IMG/VR virus record: IMGVR_UViG_3300045988_054859
DNA from: a virus
Direction: 5' to 3' (one strand)
DNA length: 61,533 nt
Made by a program: the position numbers and the translations under genes. A model generated the notes under the pieces. That model saw nothing but the letters and a program-made list of their open reading frames with translations. It ran no database searches and was not told where the DNA came from. Positions 1 to 61,533 of this stretch are shown piece after piece (the stretch's first letter is position 1; every line of letters starts with the position of its first letter).

Positions 1-119
1 CATTTATCCTGCGCCTCCTTTCGATTAAAATATTTACAGGGGAAACGCTAAATGTTCGTTTTTGGCGTCACGATTTTGCATCAATGACGCGAAACGGGTC
101 GCTTCGGGTTAAAAAAAAG
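1..119. repeat. Terminal direct repeat, copy 1 (identical to 61415..61533)
   Basis: Base-by-base identity read by eye from 'catttatcctgcgcc' to 'ggttaaaaaaaag'. Genes continue across the junction. Confidence 0.95.
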
Positions 120-1077: not shown

Positions 1078-1089
1078 TTGGAGGTCATC

Positions 1090-2682
1090 ATGGAGCAGTA
1101 TCTCATATATCTGCGCAAGTCTCGTTCCGACCTCGAGGCCGAAGCGCACGGCGAGGGCGAAACGCTCTCACGGCACGAGCACACTCTGCTCGAGCTGGCG
1201 AAAAGGCAGCATCTCAACGTGACCGATATTTACCGCGAGGTCGTCTCTGGTGACACCATCGCTGCCCGCCCAATGATGCAACGGGTTCTCTCCGAGGTTG
1301 AGCAGGGCGTCTGGTCCGGCGTCCTCGTCATGGAGGTCGAGCGTCTGGCGCGCGGCGACACCATCGACCAAGGCATCATCGCGCAGACATTCAAGTTTTC
1401 CGGGACAAAAATAATAACCCCTATAAAAACGTATGACCCTGACAACGAGTTCGACGAGGAGTATTTTGAGTTCGGCTTGTTTATGAGCCGCCGCGAGTAC
1501 AAAATCATCAACCGCCGGTTGCAGCGCGGTCGCCTCGCCTCCGCCAAAGAGGGCAAATGGCCGTCCGGTCTAGCTCCCTTTGGTTATCGTCGGGTAAAGC
1601 TCAAAAACGAAAAGGGCTGCTCGCTCGAGCCAATCGAGGAGCAGGCCGCAATAGTCCGTATGATTTTCGACCTGTACACGGTCGGCTTGCAGGACGAGGA
1701 TGGTTCCGCTCGCCCGCTGTCTCTGGGTTCAATCGCCACGAGGCTCAACGATATGCACATCCCGTCTCCGTCCGGTTCGCAATGGGCAAGAATCACCATT
1801 CGCGGAATCATCAAGAATCCGACGTACATCGGCATGGTGCGCTGGGGCAGCCGTGAGACGAAGAAGAAAGTAGTTGACGGCAAGGTCGTTTCTGTACGCG
1901 GTCCTGCCGACCCAGAGAAAGAGCGCATATTCAAAGGCATTCACCCTCCGCTCATTCCGAAAGAAACATTTGAGCTCGCAAACGATAAGCTCACCCGGAG
2001 TGAGAATACTTCCACGCACAAAGAAAAGGTTGTCCGGAATCCTCTGGCCGGTCTGCTCGTCTGCTCCGAGTGCGGCAGGCAGATGATGCGAATGATAAAC
2101 CCTGTCCATCCAGATATGCCGGTCGTGCGCTGTCCTCGTCGCGGCTGCCCGAATTGTTCGAGCTATCTTCCTATCGTCGAGGAGCGCGTCATACAGGGTC
2201 TCTCCAAGTGGATGAAAGGTTATGAGCTCGAGTGGAGCTCCGCTGCCGCGTCGTCCTCCGTGTCGTCGGTCGGCGTCCGGGAAAAAGCTCTCGCCAGCGC
2301 GGAGGCCGAGCTCCGCAAATTACAGCAGCAGCTCGAACGTACCCACGACTTCCTCGAGCAGGGCATCTACGACACAGACACCTTTCTGTCCCGCTCCCGA
2401 ATGCTCTCCGACAAAATCGCTGCCGCAAAGGATAGTGTCGCCCGCTGCTCCCGTGAGTTGACCGAGGAGAAGCTCCGGGAGACCAGCCGCCGTGACATCA
2501 TCCCTAAGGTTAAGAATTTGCTCGACGTGTACCCGCTGCTCGAAACGGCCGAGGAGAAAAACGCCCTCCTAAAAGAGGTGCTCGAAAAGGTCGTCTATCA
2601 GAAGCTAAACGAGAAGCGCAAAAAGAGTCCTGACGGCTTTACCATTGAGATATACCCGCGCATCCCAAAATCCGAAAAATGA
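1090..2682 (+). CDS. int: Large serine recombinase (integrase), 530 aa
   Basis: N-terminus is YLIYLRKSRSD...GDTIAARPMMQ...VLVMEVERLARG (resolvase catalytic domain). Next comes a recombinase domain (GLAPFGYRR), then a Cys-rich zinc ribbon (CSECG...CPRRGCPNC) and a coiled coil. GGAGG lies 6 nt before the ATG at 1090. Confidence 0.9.
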   Translation: MEQYLIYLRKSRSDLEAEAHGEGETLSRHEHTLLELAKRQHLNVTDIYREVVSGDTIAARPMMQRVLSEVEQGVWSGVLVMEVERLARGDTIDQGIIAQTFKFSGTKIITPIKTYDPDNEFDEEYFEFGLFMSRREYKIINRRLQRGRLASAKEGKWPSGLAPFGYRRVKLKNEKGCSLEPIEEQAAIVRMIFDLYTVGLQDEDGSARPLSLGSIATRLNDMHIPSPSGSQWARITIRGIIKNPTYIGMVRWGSRETKKKVVDGKVVSVRGPADPEKERIFKGIHPPLIPKETFELANDKLTRSENTSTHKEKVVRNPLAGLLVCSECGRQMMRMINPVHPDMPVVRCPRRGCPNCSSYLPIVEERVIQGLSKWMKGYELEWSSAAASSSVSSVGVREKALASAEAELRKLQQQLERTHDFLEQGIYDTDTFLSRSRMLSDKIAAAKDSVARCSRELTEEKLRETSRRDIIPKVKNLLDVYPLLETAEEKNALLKEVLEKVVYQKLNEKRKKSPDGFTIEIYPRIPKSEK

Positions 2683-7239: not shown

Positions 7240-7449
7240 TTATTCGGGCATAAAGCCGTAACCGGCCTCAAATGCCGCTACTTCTCGGAGGTAGGCAACG
7301 CGGCCTGCTGCGCGGTCGATGGCGTCGCGCAATTCGCGGTTTTCCACCAGCTTGAGCAACGCGGTGAGCGTGTCCTCTGCCTGCATGATTTCGCGGGTGT
7401 CCTGCGGGTTGACCTGCTCCATGTAGAGCTCATAAATAGACTGTTCCAT
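7240..7449 (-). CDS. Hypothetical small protein (69 aa)
   Basis: TAGGAGG lies 6 nt before the ATG. Helical acidic peptide with no recognisable motif. Confidence 0.55.
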   Translation of the reverse strand: MEQSIYELYMEQVNPQDTREIMQAEDTLTALLKLVENRELRDAIDRAAGRVAYLREVAAFEAGYGFMPE

Positions 7450-7806
7450 GCTTGCCTCCTATGCCCGCCAGCGGTCGAGCCGCTGCCGCGCATACAGGAT
7501 TTGCGCGCGCCGTTCTTCCCGCTGCGGGTGTTTCGGAGCAGCCATTGTGACGGGAGGGCTGTTCGTGGTCCCCGTGCAGCCCTCTCCATCACCTCCCTGT
7601 GGGCCGTCTCCCGCAGGCTGATTTTAACTTGCTGGCTATTTGCCTGTAGCTTTTCGGAGTGCTTTCTCCTGCGTTGAGCCGTAGAACGTCACGAGCACGG
7701 CTCCGGGGCCTCGATTTCGGGCTTTTGTGGTCTGGCCGTAAAGATTGCCGCCTAGCCACCACGACTCTTTGCGGGTCTCCGCAGGAGGCTTTCGTCACTT
7801 GCTGGG

Positions 7807-8805
7807 TCATTTCACGATTTCCGCCAGCCTCTCGACGGTAACATCTGTCTCGATGTACGGGCTGCTGCCGGTGTCGTCTGTGTAGGTTCCGGTTACACCA
7901 TCTGCGCTTTTCCAAAGTATCATGTTTTCCACCTTGCTGCTGTTGCCCTCGCTGAACTCCTCGACCTTGTACTCCGAAAGCGTGATACCAAGCTCTGCCG
8001 CTTTGTCGAACACTGCCTGCGCCGTTTGCTCCGCCACTATCGGGAGATACAGGCCGCCAGAGGAAACGGTTCGAACGGTGAGCGTGTACTTGCCGCTGTA
8101 ATAGAATGCATCAATCGACGATATGTAGGCTGCGCTTTCTTTGTCCAGCGCGTTCAGTGCGGTTTCTTCGAGGACGCTCCGGTTCGTCTCCGGCGTCGAT
8201 ACTCTGGTTGTGCTGGTTGTTCTCTTTCGAGGTGCTATAAGGTCGAATCCGCCAAAAAGCATGAACGCAAAGAACACAGCAACAGCGATGGCTATGATGT
8301 TCGCCTTTTTGTTCTGCTTTTTGCTCGGCTCCGCTGCCGGGTTTTCTTTTTTGGGCTGCTCCGGTTTCTGCTCCGGCGACGGCTCCTCTTTCACGCGGTC
8401 CGCAAAGCTCACTTTTTCTTTGTCATCGCCAAAGTATGCCCAAAAGCACTTTTCCCGTTCGTCCACATACAGGTGTGTCATGTACTTCCAGCCATGCTCT
8501 GTGTGGTATTTTCCTAGTACCTTTTTGTGCAGAACATCTATCACAGCGAATGTTCCGCTGTCCTCGTCGTTCCGGGCGTTGTGCGCTGTCTGGCACACGG
8601 CGTATCTTGAGCCGTCTGAAATGGAGGCCGCGTTTACAAAAGATTCTGTTTCGTACACCAGCTCCGGGGTGAATGAATCGTCCGTGATGTAGAATTGCTT
8701 TCCCCAAAAGCAAGCAATCTTGGAATCCCTGCTCATTACGAAGTTGATTTCGAGCGATGGCTTGTACGCGCACTGCTGTTTCAGCCTCTCCCGTACCTCG
8801 TCCAT
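7807..8805 (-). CDS. Single-pass membrane protein (332 aa as drawn). It is probably the out-of-frame body of a longer gene that starts at 8902.
   Basis: A central TM segment IIAIAVAVFFAFMLFGGF follows a Lys/Pro/Glu-rich linker. There is no SD in front of the ATG at 8805. A strong RBS plus ATG at 8902 is separated from this frame by a G11 tract (see findings). Confidence 0.6.
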   Translation of the reverse strand: MDEVRERLKQQCAYKPSLEINFVMSRDSKIACFWGKQFYITDDSFTPELVYETESFVNAASISDGSRYAVCQTAHNARNDEDSGTFAVIDVLHKKVLGKYHTEHGWKYMTHLYVDEREKCFWAYFGDDKEKVSFADRVKEEPSPEQKPEQPKKENPAAEPSKKQNKKANIIAIAVAVFFAFMLFGGFDLIAPRKRTTSTTRVSTPETNRSVLEETALNALDKESAAYISSIDAFYYSGKYTLTVRTVSSGGLYLPIVAEQTAQAVFDKAAELGITLSEYKVEEFSEGNSSKVENMILWKSADGVTGTYTDDTGSSPYIETDVTVERLAEIVK

Positions 8806-8839
8806 TGGGATGCTGGCCGGGTCTACGAATCGCGCGCTG

Positions 8840-8902
8840 CTACTTGTTACCCCCCCCCCCGAACAGTTGTTCGTGGGTGAGGGACGCAGTTGTGTTGCCC
8901 AT
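8840..8902 (-). CDS. 20-codon leader ORF ending just after the poly-G tract (MGNTTASLTHEQLFGGGGNK)
   Basis: AGGAGG (8912..8917) lies 9 nt upstream of the ATG at 8902. With G11 the frame stops at TAG 8840..8842. With G10 it reads into the 332-aa ORF. Confidence 0.5.
   Translation of the reverse strand: MGNTTASLTHEQLFGGGGNK
8850..8860. repeat. Homopolymer C11 (G11 on the coding strand)
   Basis: Counted by eye as 'a' then 11 c then 'gaacag'. Confidence 0.9.
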
Positions 8903-8942
8903 AACTGTTGTCCTCCTGTCCTGTGTTGGTGGTCGTGCTTTT

Positions 8943-8971
8943 ATGATAGCACCTAACAGGGACAATGGCAA
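8943..8971 (-). promoter_or_regulatory. Promoter TTGCCA-17-TATCAT for the membrane-protein gene
   Basis: The minus strand reads TTGCCAttgtccctgttaggtgcTATCAT. The spacer carries a degenerate copy (GTCCC-tgtta-GGTGC) of the operator motif. Confidence 0.5.
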
Positions 8972-8983
8972 CGGCTTTCGCGC

Positions 8984-9003
8984 CAGCGATTGCAAAATCG
9001 CTG
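8984..9003. promoter_or_regulatory. Perfect dyad CAGCGATT-gcaa-AATCGCTG
   Basis: 8-bp arms. It lies 2 bp upstream of a plus-strand TATAAT (9006..9011) and 13 bp upstream of the minus-strand -35. Confidence 0.35.
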
Positions 9004-9016
9004 AGTATAATATATT

Positions 9017-9051
9017 CTCTACTCTACTCTTCTTTACTCTACTCTACTTTG
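9017..9051. repeat. Seven tandem pentamers (CTCTA CTCTA CTCTT CTTTA CTCTA CTCTA CTTTG)
   Basis: Read directly. The run is entirely pyrimidine-rich on the plus strand. Confidence 0.8.
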
Positions 9052-9074
9052 TCGATTGTTTCGCCGGAAATACC

Positions 9075-9113
9075 CGGAAATGCTGCTTTCAGTGCATATC
9101 CGCGCGGATATGC
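9075..9113. repeat. Repeat unit U1 (GGAAATGCTGCTTTCAGTGCATATCC) overlapping a perfect 20-bp palindrome GCATATCCGC|GCGGATATGC (9094..9113)
   Basis: U1 recurs at 9347..9372 with 4 mismatches. CCGGAAA/TTTCCG(G/C) words recur at least 8 times across 9064..9374. Confidence 0.7.
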
Positions 9114-9346
9114 GTTCAAAACGGTATTTCCGCTCCGGTTATATTGTTTTTCGTGGTATTTTGGGACAACTGCGTGTGTTGTCTCGCATGACCCTTTTAT
9201 CAACTTTTTCCACCCAGTTTTCCACTTTTCGGGTCGTTCTGGTATTTCCGCGCCGTTTTTCTGCGGTTATCCACGGAAATGATAGAAAATGTATCAAAAA
9301 GTGCATTTCTGTCCCGAAAATGTCTTTTTACGAGAATAACCGCGCC

Positions 9347-9372
9347 GGAAATGCTGTTTTAAGTGCGTTTCC
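9347..9372. repeat. Repeat unit U2 (GGAAATGCTGTTTTAAGTGCGTTTCC)
   Basis: Direct repeat of 9075..9100, 272 bp downstream. It lies inside CCGGAAA-N16-TTTCCGG. Confidence 0.7.
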
Positions 9373-9398: not shown

Positions 9399-9447
9399 TA
9401 AAAAAAGAGCCTCCCGGCCCTCTTGTGCGAGGAATACCGGGAGGCTC
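9399..9447 (-). terminator. Intrinsic terminator after the lysis cassette
   Basis: The minus strand shows gagcctcccgg...ccgggaggctc (11-bp stem) followed by ttttttt. Confidence 0.7.
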
Positions 9448-9478: not shown

Positions 9479-9733
9479 TTAGTGAATCTGGTTCTTGACG
9501 TTCTCGTAGGTCTTATCGCCCTCGATAGCGGCCTGCGTGAAGGAGTTGTTGTACCACCAGTTAATCAGGGCCGTAACGGTGGTGATGCCCGTGGTGACGA
9601 GCTGTTCCACCGTGCTGCTCTCGATGGGCAGCGGAGACTTGCCGAACGCGCTCAAAATCTGGTTTGCCAGAGCCAGCAGCAGAGCAGCGGTACGGGCGAT
9701 GGTGGCGGCGGAAACTTTGTTATTGTACTTCAT
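9479..9733 (-). CDS. Holin (phiLC3/SPP1-type), 84 aa
   Basis: Contains ARTAALLLALANQILSAFG and the signature WWYNNSFTQAA typical of this holin family. Adjacent to the endolysin. Confidence 0.75.
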   Translation of the reverse strand: MKYNNKVSAATIARTAALLLALANQILSAFGKSPLPIESSTVEQLVTTGITTVTALINWWYNNSFTQAAIEGDKTYENVKNQIH

Positions 9734-10122: not shown

Positions 10123-10782
10123 TCACAGATATTTGTCTGCGCCTGACAGGGCAGTCCAGCTCTTGGGGCCGCAAATGCCATCAGGGACGAGGCCGTGCTT
10201 ACGCTGGGCCGTCATCAGTGCCTTTGTGGTAGCCGGGCCAAAACTGCCGTCGTGCGGGATGCCGAGGAGCCGCTGCAGCATAACCGTAGCTGCGCGGTTA
10301 GCGGCTCCCTCGCAACCCTGCTCGATGGTCGGCAGGACAAACTTGTTGTAGGTGGTGCTGGGATACACGCCGGGCTGTACGCAAAGCCATGTAGCCTTGC
10401 CTCCGCGCGTGTCGGTGTGGACAATGGCGGCCTTGTCGTGCCAGTAGATGCCGACCGCGCCAAAGCCCTGCGCGGCCGCGATGATGCCGAGGGCGACGGG
10501 GTTGACGCTCCGGTCCTTCGTGCGCCAGTCGGCCGCAATGCCGTAGAGGTGGCGGCTTGTCCGGCTGCCGCCGACTTTCGGGTCTGCGTTGTGCTTCACG
10601 CACCGGTAGCCCGACGTAACCTTGATGGCCTTGCCGAGCTTGGTGCGGATGGTCTGCATCTTCTGGACGAGCTCCGGGTCAATCATCTGCGCCGTGCATC
10701 CGCACGGACAGGCGAACTCGTACCGCTCGAAGTCTGTGGTGATTTTCGTGTGGTCGTTCGGCTTAAAGGTAATTACGCTCAT
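10123..10782 (-). CDS. Endolysin: M15-type zinc peptidase domain plus a C-terminal PG_binding_1 domain (219 aa)
   Basis: Contains SGYRCVKHNADPKVGGSRTSRHLYGIAADW (H-x-D/H zinc peptidase pattern). The C-terminus LLGIPHDGSFGPATTKALMTAQRKHGLVPDGICGPKSW is a peptidoglycan-binding repeat. Confidence 0.8.
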   Translation of the reverse strand: MSVITFKPNDHTKITTDFERYEFACPCGCTAQMIDPELVQKMQTIRTKLGKAIKVTSGYRCVKHNADPKVGGSRTSRHLYGIAADWRTKDRSVNPVALGIIAAAQGFGAVGIYWHDKAAIVHTDTRGGKATWLCVQPGVYPSTTYNKFVLPTIEQGCEGAANRAATVMLQRLLGIPHDGSFGPATTKALMTAQRKHGLVPDGICGPKSWTALSGADKYL

Positions 10783-11908: not shown

Positions 11909-13168
11909 TTACTGGAATGCACCGCTGACGGCTTCGATGTAGCCGCCCTCGCCGGATTCGCCGCGCTCCACGCTGACGCGGAAGTTAAACGCCGCGCCGT
12001 TGGTGGCGGTCTTATTCTCAAAGACGATGTTCACGCCTTTTTTTACCTCGGTCGTGGCATCCTGCCAGACCGGGGAGCTGTCGAGTGCGTTGTTGGTCAC
12101 TTCGGCTTTGAACTTCGCATCATCGGGGATGGAGCCGGTCACCTGAAGCACGGCAACGGTAATGTCGCCCTCAACGGCCAACGGTTCAGCCAGCGTCACG
12201 CTTGCGGCGTGGACGGCCTTGGTAAAGGTCGCGGACGTGCTGACGGTTTCCTTGCCGTCGCTCACCTCAACGGTGATGGTGTGGTTGCCGTTCAGGATTT
12301 TCTGGAATCCGGCAGCGCTGGCCGTCTGCTCAAAGGTCAGGGCCGTGCCGCTGGCAACGCCGGTGCGGGTCTTGGCGGTCTTTCCGTCCAGCTTTTCGGT
12401 GACGGTCAAGGTGTCGCCGTCGGCATCCCTGACGGTGTACTTCCACGCAAAGGCCGCGTTCTTCCGCCCCAGAGCTGCGCCGTCCGTGCTGACGGTAGGT
12501 GCAGTGTTGACACTGACCGTGCCGTCGTCAGAGACCACGAGTGTAGAGGGAAGAATGAAAGCGGGGCGAACACCATAGGAGAAGTAGCACCAGTGGCCGT
12601 CGTCGGAGCCATCGGTGCTGACGTACCAGACGCCGCTGCCATCGCTGGTGTACGGAGAGCGCAGCCACCAAATGGCAGCGGAGCTGCCATTGTATGCAAT
12701 ACGCTTGCTGTTACCGCTGGAGCTGTTGCCAAAGTATGCCAGCCTCACACCGTCCTTCGGGAAATAGCCGTTGTCGCTGGTCGTCCAACCAACCTCATAA
12801 CCAGACAGCAGGAACACTTTGGTGCTCAGGCCGTTGGAGCCGGTGGCAAGGCTGCCGCCGGAACCAGTGCCGTTCTGGTACGGGATTTTCACCTGCTTAA
12901 TAGCCGCCCGGATGTTGCTGTCGATGAGGTTGTAGAACGTTCCGTTCAGGTATGTGTGGATGCTGGAATCCTTGTAGGAGTTATTGTTGCCGAACGTGGA
13001 CGTGGTGTAGATGTCCTTCATCAGCAGCCACGTTCCATTGCAACTCGAATCATAGGTGCTGGTATTCGGGTTGCCCTGCTGCACAACAATAAAATCTTTG
13101 GACGCGCCGTTGACTTTGATTTTGACAATGCTGCCAACGGCTTTCGTGCCCAGTTTTACGTTTGCCAT
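11909..13168 (-). CDS. DGR target protein (receptor-binding/tail-fibre-like, 419 aa) with an internal variable region
   Basis: AAGGAGG lies 6 nt before the ATG at 13168. VR encodes AAIWWLRSPYTSDGSGVWYVSTDGSDDGHWCYFSYGVRPAF (C-type-lectin-like DGR VR pattern WLRS...GVRP). About 216 aa of beta-rich sequence follow. Confidence 0.8.
   Translation of the reverse strand: MANVKLGTKAVGSIVKIKVNGASKDFIVVQQGNPNTSTYDSSCNGTWLLMKDIYTTSTFGNNNSYKDSSIHTYLNGTFYNLIDSNIRAAIKQVKIPYQNGTGSGGSLATGSNGLSTKVFLLSGYEVGWTTSDNGYFPKDGVRLAYFGNSSSGNSKRIAYNGSSAAIWWLRSPYTSDGSGVWYVSTDGSDDGHWCYFSYGVRPAFILPSTLVVSDDGTVSVNTAPTVSTDGAALGRKNAAFAWKYTVRDADGDTLTVTEKLDGKTAKTRTGVASGTALTFEQTASAAGFQKILNGNHTITVEVSDGKETVSTSATFTKAVHAASVTLAEPLAVEGDITVAVLQVTGSIPDDAKFKAEVTNNALDSSPVWQDATTEVKKGVNIVFENKTATNGAAFNFRVSVERGESGEGGYIEAVSGAFQ
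12561..12680 (-). repeat. DGR variable region (VR)
   Basis: Gapless 120-bp alignment to 14590..14709. All 19 mismatches fall where TR has A on the coding strand. Confidence 0.9.
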
Positions 13169-13188
13169 TGTTACCTCCTTGTTTTCGT

Positions 13189-14418
13189 TCAGGCCCACGG
13201 CATGATCTCCGCGGGCCGCGTGTTCTGCGATACAGAGAGGGACAGGGCTTTGTGCTGCTTCTTGTAGATGCAGCGGCATTGCCTCGCCCGCCGTCTGTCA
13301 CGCGCGAGTTTGTTCGAGTTGATTTTTCGATGGATAGGGATTTTACAGTCAAGCAATTTTTCGAGCCGGTCAGCGTACTTGCGGCGTAAAGAGTAAGTAT
13401 CACCATGGGCGGCATGGGCATCCCACGCATCAAAGCTCCGCAGGATTTCCTGCTTGGTCACTTCGCCTGCGGGGTATGCCGTCTCCCAATATCTGATCTT
13501 GTTCTTCATCCGCTTGGAGCTATCCCGGCGCAGCTTTTGGATGACCGCGCCGGTGTCGGTCAGGTAGCTATGGAATCCCAGAAAATCAATACCGTTCCGC
13601 AGCGGGAAAATGGCGGTTTTCTGGTTCAGCTCAAGGCCGTAACTGTCCATGAGCGCCCGAACATCCCGGAGAATGCACTGCAATTTCTTCTTGTCCGAAC
13701 AGATGATGTAGAAATCATCCATGTATCGGCCATAGTATTTGATGCGGTACTTTTCTTTGATGATGTGGTCGAACTCGTCCAAAAACATGAGGGCGAAAAG
13801 CTGGCTCGTCTGGTAGCCCAGCGGCAAGCCGTCCTCCATCACGTCGATGTAGATGCAAAGCAGCTCATAGACACGCGGGTCAACGCCGCGCTTGTCCAGC
13901 ACGGCTTTGAGCTTGCGTTTTAGCTTCCGGTGGTCGATGCTGGCGAAGAAATGCCGCACGTCGCCTTTCAGCACCCAGCCGTCCGCGCCGTGGCCCTCAC
14001 GGCGGTAATAGTCCACCATGTGGGTTTTCAGGCGCATCAGGCCGTCGTCTGTGCCTTTTCCGGTCTGGCTGGCGTGGCTGTCCCGGATAAAGCTCTTTGT
14101 CAGGGCATCATACAGGATGTTATCGACCAGAGCGTGCAGCACCACCTTGTCCACAAATGCGGGGGCGTGTACCATGCGGCGCTTCGGCTCGTAGACGGAA
14201 AAGACCTCAAACTTACTTGGCACATAGCGTATCTGCTGCCGAATGCTCCCGTCTGGCTGCCGCACATTGCAGACAGCCAGCTTACGGGAGAGCTTTTCCG
14301 TGCAGGCCAGCGCCTGCGCCTCGTACTCGATTGTTTTGCTTTTACTGCGCTTTCCCTTCCGGGCTTCAAGGTAGGCTTTGTAAAGTACCTCAAAGCTGCA
14401 CAGTTCTTCGTATGCCAA
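13189..14418 (-). CDS. DGR-type reverse transcriptase (409 aa)
   Basis: Contains the RT motifs PKRRMVHAPAFVDKVVLHAL, IRDSHASQTGKGT, VLKGDVRHFFASIDH, GLPLGYQTSQLFALMFL and YGRYMDDFYII. Adjacent to the TR. Confidence 0.9.
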   Translation of the reverse strand: MAYEELCSFEVLYKAYLEARKGKRSKSKTIEYEAQALACTEKLSRKLAVCNVRQPDGSIRQQIRYVPSKFEVFSVYEPKRRMVHAPAFVDKVVLHALVDNILYDALTKSFIRDSHASQTGKGTDDGLMRLKTHMVDYYRREGHGADGWVLKGDVRHFFASIDHRKLKRKLKAVLDKRGVDPRVYELLCIYIDVMEDGLPLGYQTSQLFALMFLDEFDHIIKEKYRIKYYGRYMDDFYIICSDKKKLQCILRDVRALMDSYGLELNQKTAIFPLRNGIDFLGFHSYLTDTGAVIQKLRRDSSKRMKNKIRYWETAYPAGEVTKQEILRSFDAWDAHAAHGDTYSLRRKYADRLEKLLDCKIPIHRKINSNKLARDRRRARQCRCIYKKQHKALSLSVSQNTRPAEIMPWA

Positions 14419-14589
14419 AATGACCCTCCGCTGGTTCGCGTTACGGTAGTGGGCTGCATCCGGCAGGGATGGCCCACCTCAGCGGGATGTATTTATCACT
14501 TGCCTGCATCGGCAAGCGACAGGATGTGGTTTCCTTTGATGGGCGCACTGCTTTCAGCTTATGCCTACTCGTCACACGGTTCCATCAGA

Positions 14590-14709
14590 GCGGGGCGAAC
14601 ACCATAGGAGTTGTTGTACCAGTTGTTGTTGTTGGAGCCATCGGTGTTGACGTTCCAGACGTTGTTGTTATTGTTGGTGTTCGGAGAGCGCAGCCACCAA
14701 ATGGCAGCG
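14590..14709 (-). repeat. DGR template repeat (TR)
   Basis: Non-coding and AAC-rich. In the VR frame it translates as AAIWWLRSPNTNNNNNVWNVNTDGSNNNNWYNNSYGVRP. It lies 50 nt after the Avd-like gene and 170 nt before the RT. Confidence 0.9.
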
Positions 14710-45909: not shown

Positions 45910-46436
45910 GCGCTTTCCTCGATTACTTTGAGGTCATACCCGCTCTTGACAAACTTCATACACAGTTCGTGTTTGATGCCGTTGCCGAGGTAGGTGTAGA
46001 TGTACTCCATGTCCTCCTGCGTGAAATTGGTGTCAAGCAGCTTGTTGACGCCATCAAGATGCTCCTTGCGCAAAGGTTTCGTGTAGCCCTTGCTTGCCAA
46101 ACGGGAGCAATTCTCGATGATTTTGGCTTTGAACTCGTCCGGGGTGCTGCAGTGGTTGAGGTTGATGTATGTGTTCGTCCTCGGGACGAGAATCAGCTCG
46201 AAGTTCATGGTGACGTAGGCTTTCGGGAAAGCGCGCTGAATCTTCCCGCACCACGGAGCCGCGAACGGGCTGAACCACGGCAGCATATAGCTGCGGAGCT
46301 CCTGCTGACTGACTGCTGGGGCGTCCTGAATGTGGTCGATGCAGCGCTCGATGGCCTCCCGCTCTGCGAGGCTGTCCGCCTCCTCGAGCCATCCGTTGAA
46401 TACACGGACGGTTTCCTCTGCGTTAATCGGTTTCAT
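45906..46436 (-). CDS. Hypothetical protein (176 aa)
   Basis: Overlapping stop/start codons on both sides. Confidence 0.55.
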   Translation of the reverse strand: MKPINAEETVRVFNGWLEEADSLAEREAIERCIDHIQDAPAVSQQELRSYMLPWFSPFAAPWCGKIQRAFPKAYVTMNFELILVPRTNTYINLNHCSTPDEFKAKIIENCSRLASKGYTKPLRKEHLDGVNKLLDTNFTQEDMEYIYTYLGNGIKHELCMKFVKSGYDLKVIEESA

Positions 46437-47095
46437 AACTGTCCTCCAAATTGCTCTGCAAATGCTCGAGCGACTCCCGGGAATGTCTTTGCGCGATTTC
46501 GCGCTCTGTCTCTCGTAAACATTCCCTTGTTTTTTTCATCATGTTTGTGGGAATAAGAGCCAGATGGGCACCACGTTGCAATCGGCTCAACAATGTTCGT
46601 CGGCGCGACCGGGTCAAGATTTTTCAACCATAGACAGGTTTTCTTGCTGTATGGGTGTCCAAACTGGTACGGCTGAATAATCTGCGTGTACTCTGGGAGA
46701 CAAAATACCCTGCTCGGCACCGGATTCTCAACGCATATTCTCGGGATGTCCGCCCACCAGAATCTCATAAACAGGTCGCGTCCTAAAATTCCTTTCATTA
46801 CGCGGTCCTCTTGTAGCTGGTGGCCTTTCCACAGATGTCGTGCTCCGGCGTTTGAAAGATATGTGCATGGCGGGTGCGCAATGAGCAAGTCCCACGCATC
46901 AATGTAATGCGCTTTGTCGTCCATTGTGACGATTTGCCCCCCCCCCCGCAGAGCCGGTACGGCGTCTCCGAGGATATGCCATTCCGGGTGGCCTCCGGAC
47001 GGTTCCTGCACATCGCAGGAGTAAGCCTCATGCCCTAAAGACCGAAATGCCTTACAAACTTCCTGCGATTCCTCGCAGGCAATTAAAACTTTCAC
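46433..47095 (-). CDS. Short C5-cytosine DNA methyltransferase-like protein (220 aa) containing a G11 tract
   Basis: Contains VLIACEESQEV (motif I-like), AHPPCTYLS (PC motif IV), CVENPV (ENV motif VI) and a C-terminal RNRAKTFPGVARAFAEQF. The frame is intact with 11 G. Confidence 0.6.
   Translation of the reverse strand: MKVLIACEESQEVCKAFRSLGHEAYSCDVQEPSGGHPEWHILGDAVPALRGGGQIVTMDDKAHYIDAWDLLIAHPPCTYLSNAGARHLWKGHQLQEDRVMKGILGRDLFMRFWWADIPRICVENPVPSRVFCLPEYTQIIQPYQFGHPYSKKTCLWLKNLDPVAPTNIVEPIATWCPSGSYSHKHDEKNKGMFTRDRARNRAKTFPGVARAFAEQFGGQL
46937..46947. repeat. Homopolymer C11 (G11 on the coding strand, encoding RGGGQ) inside the methyltransferase gene
   Basis: Counted by eye as 'gatttg' then 11 c then 'gcagag'. 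Confidence 0.9.
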
Positions 47096-49097: not shown

Positions 49098-49659
49098 TTA
49101 CGTCGTATAGCAACGCTTGGCCGGGTTCCACGTGAGCTTCGGGATGCTCCGGCCGCAAACGCAGGAGAACTTCTCGTTTACGATTTCGGCGTCCTCGACG
49201 TTCGTCCGACCGTAGCTCTCCTTCTTGCAGACCGGGCAGGTGAACTCGAACCGTGCCAGCGCGTCCAGCGGGATTTTCGCGCCGCACTTCCGGCACTCGT
49301 TGGTCGTTTGCGGTTCGCGCAAGAACTGTACAAACTCGCTCTTGCATTTCGGGCAGCGCAGGAGCATGAGCCCCTTTGCGCCGACGGGCGTAAGCCAGCT
49401 TACCGGCTTCTTGGGGGGGGGCTTTCTTGTCCGCCGTGGAAACTACCGAGGCGGCCTGCTTCGGCTCGCTGGTGACGCTCTTTTCCGCCTCCGGCGCGCT
49501 GTCGCCGTTGTACAGCGTCGTGGTCTTGGCGATGGTCTCGAGTGTTTTGAGCGCGGTGTCGAGCTCTGCGGGGCTCTTGCCGGTCAGCGTGACGCTCACA
49601 TCCGGTTCTCCCTGAAACTTGAAAATTTCCATCGAGACTTCAAACTTCGTACTTGCCAT
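49098..49659 (-). pseudogene. Gene split by a C9 coding-strand homopolymer: N-terminal part (from ATG 49659) and zinc-ribbon C-terminal part (ORF 49098..49367) in different frames
   Basis: GGAGG RBS precedes the ATG at 49659 (MASTKFEVSMEIF...ADKKAPPQ). After the tract the zero frame becomes Arg-rich nonsense. The -1 frame is open and runs into LLRCPKCKSEF...CPVCKKE... Confidence 0.5.
49413..49421. repeat. Homopolymer G9 (C9 on the coding strand)
   Basis: Counted by eye as 'cttctt' then 9 g then 'ctttc'. Confidence 0.9.
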
Positions 49660-60925: not shown

Positions 60926-61417
60926 TTACACCTCCTGTTTTCCGAATTGCTTTCTATAAATGAGCTTCAAGGTCTGAGCCTTGTTCGTTATCTCGTCGAG
61001 TACCTCGAGGTACTGCTCCATGCGCGGCTTTTCGCTCGCGTCGATGACGCCGTCGGCCGCGATGTCGATGATTCCGTCCTTGACCTCCGGCAACGACTTC
61101 ATTGCCGAAATGAGCTGTAATGTGACCCGCTCGAGCTCTTCCAGCTCAATCGGTGAAATTGTCCCGATGCCGAGCGGGCAGAGGTGCGAGCAGAAATGGT
61201 TTTGCAGCTCCGGCGCGTTGTAGGTGTCCGACAGCATCAGGACCTCCTCCGGGTGCGGGTTGATGGTTCCGAGCTCGATGTTGGCGAGCCGCGTCCGGTC
61301 GATGCCGGTCACCTCTGACGCACCCTCTCTGCTGCCTAACCGGTCGTTCCACGATGCCGCCGCGATTCGTGCCTTGTAAAACACGTTGTCAGCGGCTTTC
61401 GTCGCCATTTTGGGCAT
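60926..61417 (-). CDS. XRE-like HTH regulator, second gene of the early leftward operon (163 aa)
   Basis: Contains SEVTGIDRTRLANIELGTINPHPEEVLMLSDTY (HTH). The AAAGGAGG RBS lies inside the terminal repeat, confirming continuity across the junction. Confidence 0.6.
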   Translation of the reverse strand: MPKMATKAADNVFYKARIAAASWNDRLGSREGASEVTGIDRTRLANIELGTINPHPEEVLMLSDTYNAPELQNHFCSHLCPLGIGTISPIELEELERVTLQLISAMKSLPEVKDGIIDIAADGVIDASEKPRMEQYLEVLDEITNKAQTLKLIYRKQFGKQEV

Positions 61418-61533
61418 TTATCCTGCGCCTCCTTTCGATTAAAATATTTACAGGGGAAACGCTAAATGTTCGTTTTTGGCGTCACGATTTTGCATCAATG
61501 ACGCGAAACGGGTCGCTTCGGGTTAAAAAAAAG
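61415..61533. repeat. Terminal direct repeat, copy 2 (identical to 1..119)
   Basis: See copy 1. Confidence 0.95.

Follow-up and report, generated by a model that had tools for sequence, protein, structure and literature searches.

Repeat-mediated phase variation is textbook biology for mucosal pathogens and, to our knowledge, is barely documented in phages. Here we describe a locus in IMG/VR virus record IMGVR_UViG_3300045988_054859, a stretch of 61,533 nucleotides (nt) that was analysed at its full length and is called the window below. On its minus strand, a run of 11 G residues (G11, with other lengths written likewise) lies in the 5' part of a gene for a membrane protein. The run is probably a site of localized hypermutation that turns translation of a prophage accessory gene ON or OFF, and the allele in the window is OFF. 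The original prediction had proposed such a slipped-strand, frame-toggling switch, and our comparison supports it: lengths from G7 to G16 occur in relatives with identical flanks, both states are common, and the open reading frames (ORFs) are intact and bear the marks of selection. What had been missed is that the tract is one of three in the genome and that the switch lies at the edge of a swappable slot, which holds cargo A in the window and other cargo types (B, C and D) in relatives.

Among phages, hypermutable polyG tracts have been described in the Campylobacter Fletchervirus, where they give rise to ON/OFF phage sub-populations (Sorensen et al. 2021, Cell Rep, as cited in PMC11959909), a case that a 2025 review terms 'exceptional' (PMC11959909). 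In both systems poly-G runs in phage coding genes change length and generate ON/OFF variants, here at three tracts. Unlike the Fletchervirus phages, which are virulent myoviruses of a Gram-negative host with tracts in receptor-binding (virion) genes, the phage studied here is temperate (it encodes a serine integrase and is found integrated), infects the Gram-positive Faecalibacterium, and carries its tracts in a post-lysis accessory gene, a methyltransferase-annotated gene and a zinc-ribbon early gene. Moreover, one of these tracts belongs to a conserved leader cassette with exchangeable cargo. The 'mobile contingency locus' neuO of prophage CUS-3 in E. coli K1 (Deszo et al. 2005, cited in PMC3046976) is likewise a prophage-borne accessory gene in which slipped-strand changes in a 5' coding repeat shift the frame. 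The neuO repeat, however, is a heptanucleotide variable-number tandem repeat whose in-frame copies add functional heptads to a left-handed beta-helix O-acetyltransferase, whereas our locus combines a mononucleotide run and several cargos with an unrelated fold (a WD40-like N-domain plus an alpha/beta external domain) that has no Pfam match.

Homopolymeric-tract contingency loci are well described in Neisseria, Haemophilus, Campylobacter, Helicobacter and Bordetella (PMC5084427, PMC1891110). They share with our locus a G/C run of at least 8 nt near the 5' end of an ORF, frame-based ON/OFF control and the presence of several loci per genome, and we also count their surface-associated products as a likeness; in contrast, they are chromosomal loci of mucosal pathogens, and ours is carried by a phage whose host, a gut commensal of the Firmicutes, is an obligate anaerobe. 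Phasevarions rely on phase-variable Type III mod and other methyltransferases (PMC13076061). Similarly, the second tract of our genome toggles a methyltransferase-annotated gene between intact and frameshifted forms among near-identical phages, although that gene is a phage-encoded orphan of 220 amino acids (aa) with no match to Pfam DNA_methylase. Gram-positive temperate phages also encode superinfection-exclusion (Sie) membrane proteins and lipoproteins, such as Ltp of TP-J34 and Sie2009, and we know of no phase-variable protein of this type. As with them, a small envelope protein expressed by the prophage is encoded close to the lysis/lysogeny junction, cargo B being a lipoprotein and cargo A carrying the same external domain on a transmembrane (TM) segment; unlike them, the cargos show no sequence or fold similarity to these proteins in the libraries searched, and types C and D are cytoplasmic. 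We found no literature report of homopolymer switches in phages of gut Firmicutes, and a paper on Faecalibacterium prophages rich in diversity-generating retroelements (DGRs) makes no mention of homopolymers or frameshifts. New here are the temperate phage of a Gram-positive commensal as the carrier, the three loci in one genome, and the conserved leader-tract cassette at a cargo hotspot.

A probable reading-frame switch and its length variants

The poly-G tract decides whether a short leader is joined to the cargo body. The elements that had been recognised upstream of it, a TTGCCA-17-TATCAT promoter, the sequence AGGAGG and an ATG at 8902, are present base for base (Table 1). In the G11 allele the frame indeed closes with GGGGNK and a TAG that begins 8 nt past the last G, and one G fewer or two more opens it, as predicted, into the 332-aa ORF. 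The open frame reads MGNTTASLTHEQLFGGG(G)VTSSSARFVDPASIPMDEVRERL... up to the stop at 7807, so that the leader is fused to the ORF in a product of 364 (G10) or 365 (G13) aa, while G9 and G12 halt after 17-18 codons. Generally, lengths of 3n+1 (7, 10, 13, 16) yield a protein of 364-366 aa and every other length stops after 17-39 codons. For the design of reporter fusions, the interrupted version of the tract is GGAGGTGGC.

Tract length is highly variable among the ~90 related contigs that were compared. Seventeen IMG/VR loci encoding the same protein at 93-100% identity carry G8, G9, G10, G11, G13, G16 or, in two instances, interrupted tracts, and two of these contigs end at the tract. A search with the leader DNA only, which favours neither ON nor OFF, retrieved 35 viral contigs from IMG/VR and 56 gut-metagenome contigs from the European Nucleotide Archive (ENA). 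The 33 informative IMG/VR alleles, the window's own included, range from G7 to G16, with 18 in frame and 15 out of frame. Among the 47 informative ENA alleles, 26 are in frame (G10 in 21, G7 in three, G13 and G16) and 21 are out of frame (G9 in 14, G8 in three, G11 in two, G12, and one G10 with another indel). The in-frame share is thus 54-55% compared with the 33% expected without selection (p=0.0097 for IMG/VR and p=0.0016 for ENA, against one third), these binomial p-values being optimistic, as the alleles share ancestry and are not phylogenetically independent.

The length changes occur on otherwise invariant DNA. The window (G11) and two relatives with G10 and G9 (L001 and L258) show 0 mismatches over 1,000+1,000 flanking nt, and a single identical coding sequence of 1,038 nt was found behind G8, G9, G10, G11 and G12. 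Judged from these comparisons, tract length change greatly outpaces substitution. Out-of-frame alleles are present in assemblies of different projects and assemblers, including contigs of 17-22x coverage (L283, L285 and L300). Neither a single broken length fixed in all relatives nor G10 only, the two outcomes against which the original prediction had set its claim, was found across the relatives' assemblies.

The cargo gene is retained irrespective of the state of the tract. Where enough downstream sequence was available, an intact full-length cargo ORF is present in 38 of 40 out-of-frame and in 37 of 38 in-frame alleles, and the ratio of non-synonymous to synonymous substitution rates (dN/dS) has a pairwise median of 0.14 among 23 distinct cargo-A sequences. 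Based on these values, the gene is under purifying selection, and the out-of-frame states are presumably recent or reverted. A contingency locus predicts intact, selected ORFs behind OFF tracts, and a dying pseudogene does not; we reject a decaying pseudogene on these grounds. The locus combines four of the traits by which simple sequence repeat contingency loci are recognised, namely a run of at least 8 nt in the 5' part of the ORF, polymorphic length, both states in nature and a gene that is kept. Three alleles have an interrupted or shortened tract (GAG8, G7AGG and G7A6), and each of these keeps the frame open.

Long G/C runs are strongly overrepresented in the window, and shorter ones are depleted. 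Under a first-order Markov model of the whole window, three G/C runs of at least 9 nt were observed against 0.31 expected (P=0.003), and two of at least 11 nt against 0.03; G 9-mers occur seven times, compared with 0.59 in shuffled sequences. By the same Markov model, runs of 5 nt (15 vs 76 expected) and 6 nt (2 vs 19) are depleted ~5- and ~9-fold, which indicates that the genome as a whole avoids slippery G/C runs, the three switches excepted. Of the Gly codons, GGG is used least (6.6%). The purity of the tract is thus held against both codon bias and the avoidance of G/C runs.

Slipped-strand mispairing during replication of the prophage or of the lytic genome would alter tract length. If these changes are frequent and reversible, a lysogen lineage would keep producing both ON and OFF cells. 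The tract also shows more complex alterations. One allele carries a duplicated tract, G13-AAAAAACGGAC-G8 (L160), another a G7A6 tract (L139), and in a third a T-to-G change yields an in-frame G11 (L142); two alleles have deletions beginning at the tract (L291 and L293), and four contigs stop inside or at it (L003, L012, L147 and L159). These odd alleles and contig ends suggest that the G run is also fragile or recombination-prone and breaks assemblies.

Exchangeable cargo and its predicted function

The leader and tract precede more than one gene. The sequence MGNTTASLTHEQLF-GGG stands before at least four different proteins: cargo A, the 364-aa membrane protein of this window; cargo B, a 318-aa lipoprotein with an LTGC lipobox, a relative of the external domain of A, and an extra domain; cargo C, of 342 aa, with a distant N-domain and a TPR tail; and cargo D, of 279 aa, with an A-like N-domain and the same TPR tail as C. 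In DNA alignments, ~600 nt upstream, comprising the holin end, terminator, intergenic region, promoter, ribosome-binding site and leader, are near-identical across cargo types. Homology is lost 6 nt past the tract, and in all four types the sequences align again precisely from the stop codon onward (T[G/A]A-AATGACCC...). Every type includes both ON and OFF alleles, and the purity of the tract is kept across the four types and across diverged backbones. Any ORF body that recombines into the slot, be it for a membrane protein, a lipoprotein or either of the two TPR proteins, would automatically fall under heritable ON/OFF control. As had been stated, the gene stands behind its own promoter and after the lysis genes and a terminator, with the holin and endolysin genes and a hairpin preceding it; the terminator-like hairpin may insulate the cassette from late transcription.

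The upstream region carries further repeats. A perfect 8-bp palindrome, CAGCGATT-TTGC-AATCGCTG, is located 12 nt upstream of the -35 element (8984..9003), with a stem that is conserved and a loop that varies among relatives. Nearby, a 5-nt, GTAGA-like tandem repeat of ~6 copies (9017..9048) differs by one 5-nt unit in some relatives. The palindrome and the tandem repeat may provide extra transcriptional control of the switch. Farther upstream, 6 of the genome's 16 copies of the motif CGGAAAT fall within 290 nt of intergenic DNA (9065..9352); the copies partly form inverted repeats (e.g., 9075..9132), and this iteron- or operator-like array is conserved in relatives. On the other side of the cargo, a conserved non-coding stretch of 357 nt (7450..7806, minus strand) extends from the cargo stop to a 69-aa ORF (7240..7449). 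It contains a direct repeat, CCAGCAAGT...GCCTnCTGCGGnAGAC, and folds better than shuffled sequence (z=-2.9); a search of the window, this stretch included, with Rfam returned no family.

Cargo A is predicted to span the membrane once, in agreement with the cytoplasmic and external domains that had been anticipated. Its beta-rich N-domain resembles about three WD40-type propeller blades (best Foldseek E-value 1.4e-5; Cdh1, Cdc20, WDR5), and the BFVD matches of the protein are to generic WD-repeat entries only. Many homologs of the N-domain carry TPR repeats in fusion, and none is joined to an enzymatic domain. A K/P/E-rich linker leads from the N-domain to the TM segment. The external domain, which was modelled from its own alignment, has no significant PDB match by Foldseek and belongs to a small family of mostly small lipoproteins with a lipobox, and this supports the N-in, C-out topology. 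In the ON state, cargo A would therefore be displayed as a bitopic membrane protein that joins a cytoplasmic propeller-like interaction domain to a surface domain of a lipoprotein family. Given the gene position, the membrane anchoring and the lipoprotein relatives, ON-state cargo A would most likely change the cell envelope, either excluding other phages or altering the surface. The original prediction had suggested a factor of lysogenic conversion, superinfection exclusion or abortive infection; no match to a family, defence system or structure points to a particular activity of the protein. The OFF state would spare the cost of expression or of recognition, and switching would spread the risk between the benefit and the cost of the cargo.

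Competing explanations

An assembly or sequencing artefact, in which every real tract would be G10 and the remaining lengths homopolymer miscalls of short-read metagenome assemblies, is highly improbable. Errors are frequent in long G runs, the window itself is a circular contig of the short-read type with a k-mer overlap of 119 nt, G9 predominates among the out-of-frame alleles, and four contigs end in the tract, all of which would fit such an error. However, the lengths span G7 to G16 and include in-frame G13 and G16, out-of-frame alleles recur at 17-22x coverage and across projects and assemblers, and random miscalling would not enrich in-frame lengths; it would also leave unexplained why a pure run built of the least-used Gly codon is conserved where G/C runs are otherwise avoided. 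It is unlikely, if less so, that the tract is a hypermutable hotspot without an evolved switch and that the OFF alleles are loss-of-function variants of a dispensable moron. The deletions or duplication beside the tract in some alleles (L291, L293 and L160) would agree with this, as would a cargo without known function, and the reversibility of the changes is something that we infer. Yet the OFF alleles are young or reverted rather than decaying, as 38 of 40 are otherwise intact and dN/dS is low; the tract is kept pure in four cargo contexts and on diverged backbones though a synonymous interruption would be easy, and three independent genes of one genome share the design.

Two further explanations would place the variation at the level of expression. 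Long homopolymers are slippage sites for RNA polymerases and ribosomes, and RNA-polymerase slippage or ribosomal frameshifting could yield full-length protein from 'OFF' alleles, with the tract setting the expression level; the G9 allele even offers a G GGG GGG slippery context. We consider such recoding very unlikely as the main mechanism, since the wide variation in DNA length already accounts for the two forms and recoding is not needed for them. There is no stimulatory structure, and the fold of the leader mRNA is no more stable than that of shuffled sequences (z=-0.58). Transcriptional or ribosomal slippage may at most add leakiness. That the 20-codon frame is a regulatory leader peptide governing the 332-aa ORF from its own ATG at 8805 is barely conceivable. 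Distant N-domain homologs start near Met33, the residue at that ATG, where the ancestral gene may have started; on this view, the leader and tract were apparently added in front of an older start, and a product initiated at Met33 would begin MDEVRERL.... Against translation from this site, the internal ATG has no purine-rich Shine-Dalgarno sequence upstream, as had been noted earlier; L009, L012 and every D-type allele have GTA in its place, a corresponding internal start is lacking in cargo types B and C, and the leader is fused in frame to the body in more than half of the alleles. From sequence, the ATG at 8902 is the predicted true start, and the internal ATG at 8805 is not a functional one.

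Switching through changes in DNA length remains the preferred reading, and several points weigh against it besides the shared ancestry of the alleles. All observed length variation is between assemblies. Ten OFF contigs (L249-L258) came from a search with the OFF form of the protein and are thus biased towards this state by ascertainment. In the metagenome alleles G9 far outnumbers G11, and part of this excess could come from short-read assemblers under-calling long G runs. The evidence for the promoter is a consensus match. No cargo has a Pfam, PHROG, NCBIfam or PADLOC match, even at E-values up to 10, and neither sequence nor fold relates the cargos to a described Sie or defence family, the generic WD40-like fold being the only match. 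Additionally, a role of the slot confined to the surface does not agree with the predicted cytoplasmic location of types C and D.

Further tracts and the genome of the phage

The window contains two other G/C runs of at least 9 nt, both within minus-strand genes. The gene with tract 2 matches phrog_757, annotated as 'DNA methyltransferase' (E=6.7e-54), and PPC and ENP (ENV-like) motifs are readable in its product, which is short for a C5 methyltransferase and has no Pfam (including DNA_methylase), NCBIfam or PDB sequence match. Its nearest relatives, with G9 (L057) and G7 (L065), are frameshifted at 98-100% identity, whereas the G11 of the window is intact. Among 80 related loci, the length of tract 2 ranges from G6 to G11. 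In this wider family, alleles of G6-G8 are almost all intact, the sole frameshifted one being a G7 (L084); the G9/G10 alleles L081, L086, L087, L088 and L096 are frameshifted, and the G10 allele L097 is intact. On these grounds the tract-2 gene is a candidate phage-borne phase-variable methyltransferase. At tract 3, lengths of C5, C8 or C11 on the coding strand bring an N-domain into frame with a double zinc ribbon that ends at 49098 (185-187 aa), and C7, C9 and C10 give no fusion, with the window's C9 entering an arginine-rich out-of-frame sequence. The alleles among relatives are C8 (13), C11 (two), C5, C9 (seven, the window included), C10 (six) and C7 (three). The states of the three tracts combine differently from contig to contig, and the tracts therefore appear to switch independently.

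We tentatively propose that the promoter, leader and poly-G tract could form a portable stochastic-expression cassette at a prophage cargo hotspot and, together with the two other tracts and a DGR, a multi-locus 'phasome' of a widespread Faecalibacterium temperate phage. Such a phasome, which would be undescribed for gut-commensal phages, could diversify both the lysogen phenotype and the epigenetic state of the phage. Faecalibacterium is among the most abundant human gut bacteria, and the phage is common. If the switching is confirmed, lysogens within one strain would vary stochastically in the surface or accessory functions that the prophage encodes, and possibly in DNA methylation, which matters for the coexistence of phage and host, for superinfection immunity and for the heterogeneity of strains in the gut. 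The locus also carries a warning for annotation, as gene callers split such genes or start them at internal ATGs: the exact 332-aa product of the window is called on 192 contigs, and the same cluster of 2,619 members holds the 364- and 365-aa forms.

Table 1. Coordinates of the switch, its cargo and other features of the window
Feature	Position	Strand	Remarks
-35 element TTGCCA	8971..8966	-	17-nt spacer to -10
-10 element TATCAT, extended (TGcTATCAT)	8948..8943	-	preceded by TG
Sigma-70-like promoter	8943..8971	-	10/12 consensus matches (promoter scan); present in all four cargo types
Shine-Dalgarno sequence AGGAGG	8917..8912	-	9 nt before ATG; invariant in relatives
Start codon ATG (predicted)	8902..8900	-	
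14-codon leader including start codon, MGNTTASLTHEQLF	8902..8861	-	same leader before cargo types A, B, C, D
Poly-G tract, G11, out of frame (OFF)	8860..8850	-	codons 15-18; in-frame lengths 7, 10, 13, 16
Premature TAG	8842..8840	-	ends 20-codon product of G11 allele
Cargo slot, holding cargo A	7807..8843	-	from 6 nt past tract to stop codon
332-aa ORF	8805..7807	-	joined to leader when tract in frame
Beta-rich cytoplasmic N-domain (predicted), residues ~20-170 of 364-aa form	8392..8805	-	AlphaFold predicted local distance difference test (pLDDT) >95
Single TM segment (predicted), residues 200-222, ANIIAIAVAVFFAFMLFGGFDLI	8236..8304	-	
External alpha/beta domain (predicted), residues ~239-364	7810..8187	-	pLDDT ~95
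Terminator-like hairpin 3' of holin gene	9403..9424	-	kept in relatives
SPP1-type holin	9479..9733		upstream of switch gene
M15 endolysin	10123..10782		upstream of switch gene
Tract 2, G11, in frame (ON)	46937..46947	-	in 220-aa gene 46433..47095
Tract 3, C9 on coding strand, out of frame (OFF)	49413..49421	-	gene 49659..49098
Serine integrase	1078..2682		phrog_95, E=6e-102
DGR	11909..14709	-	
DGR variable repeat	12555..12680	-	inside DUF6273 tail-region gene 11909..13279
DGR reverse transcriptase	13189..14418	-	
DGR template repeat	14584..14709	-	

The window is a circular assembly of 61,414 bp, because its last 119 nt (61415..61533) repeat the first 119 nt (1..119). It comes from a temperate phage of Faecalibacterium in the human gut. 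Besides the serine integrase, the window encodes a repressor-like protein, and a close relative (L167) is a prophage integrated in a 479-kb Faecalibacterium-like bacterial scaffold. The leader DNA pattern is absent from 185,579 species-representative genomes, and the host was therefore assigned from the gene flanking prophage L167, which shows 98% identity to Faecalibacterium intestinale; the G+C content of the window, 57.5%, fits this genus. Homology between the window and the integrated L167 stops at 2738, just after the serine integrase gene. Position ~2738 is likely the attP site, and the cargo gene would therefore be ~5 kb from one prophage end. No GenBank phage resembles the window at the switch locus, and in the terminase region the only matches are a 4-kb fragment and a lemur-gut virus at 66% identity. 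The genome also carries a DGR, whose template and variable repeats differ at 21 positions, 19 of which are template adenines.

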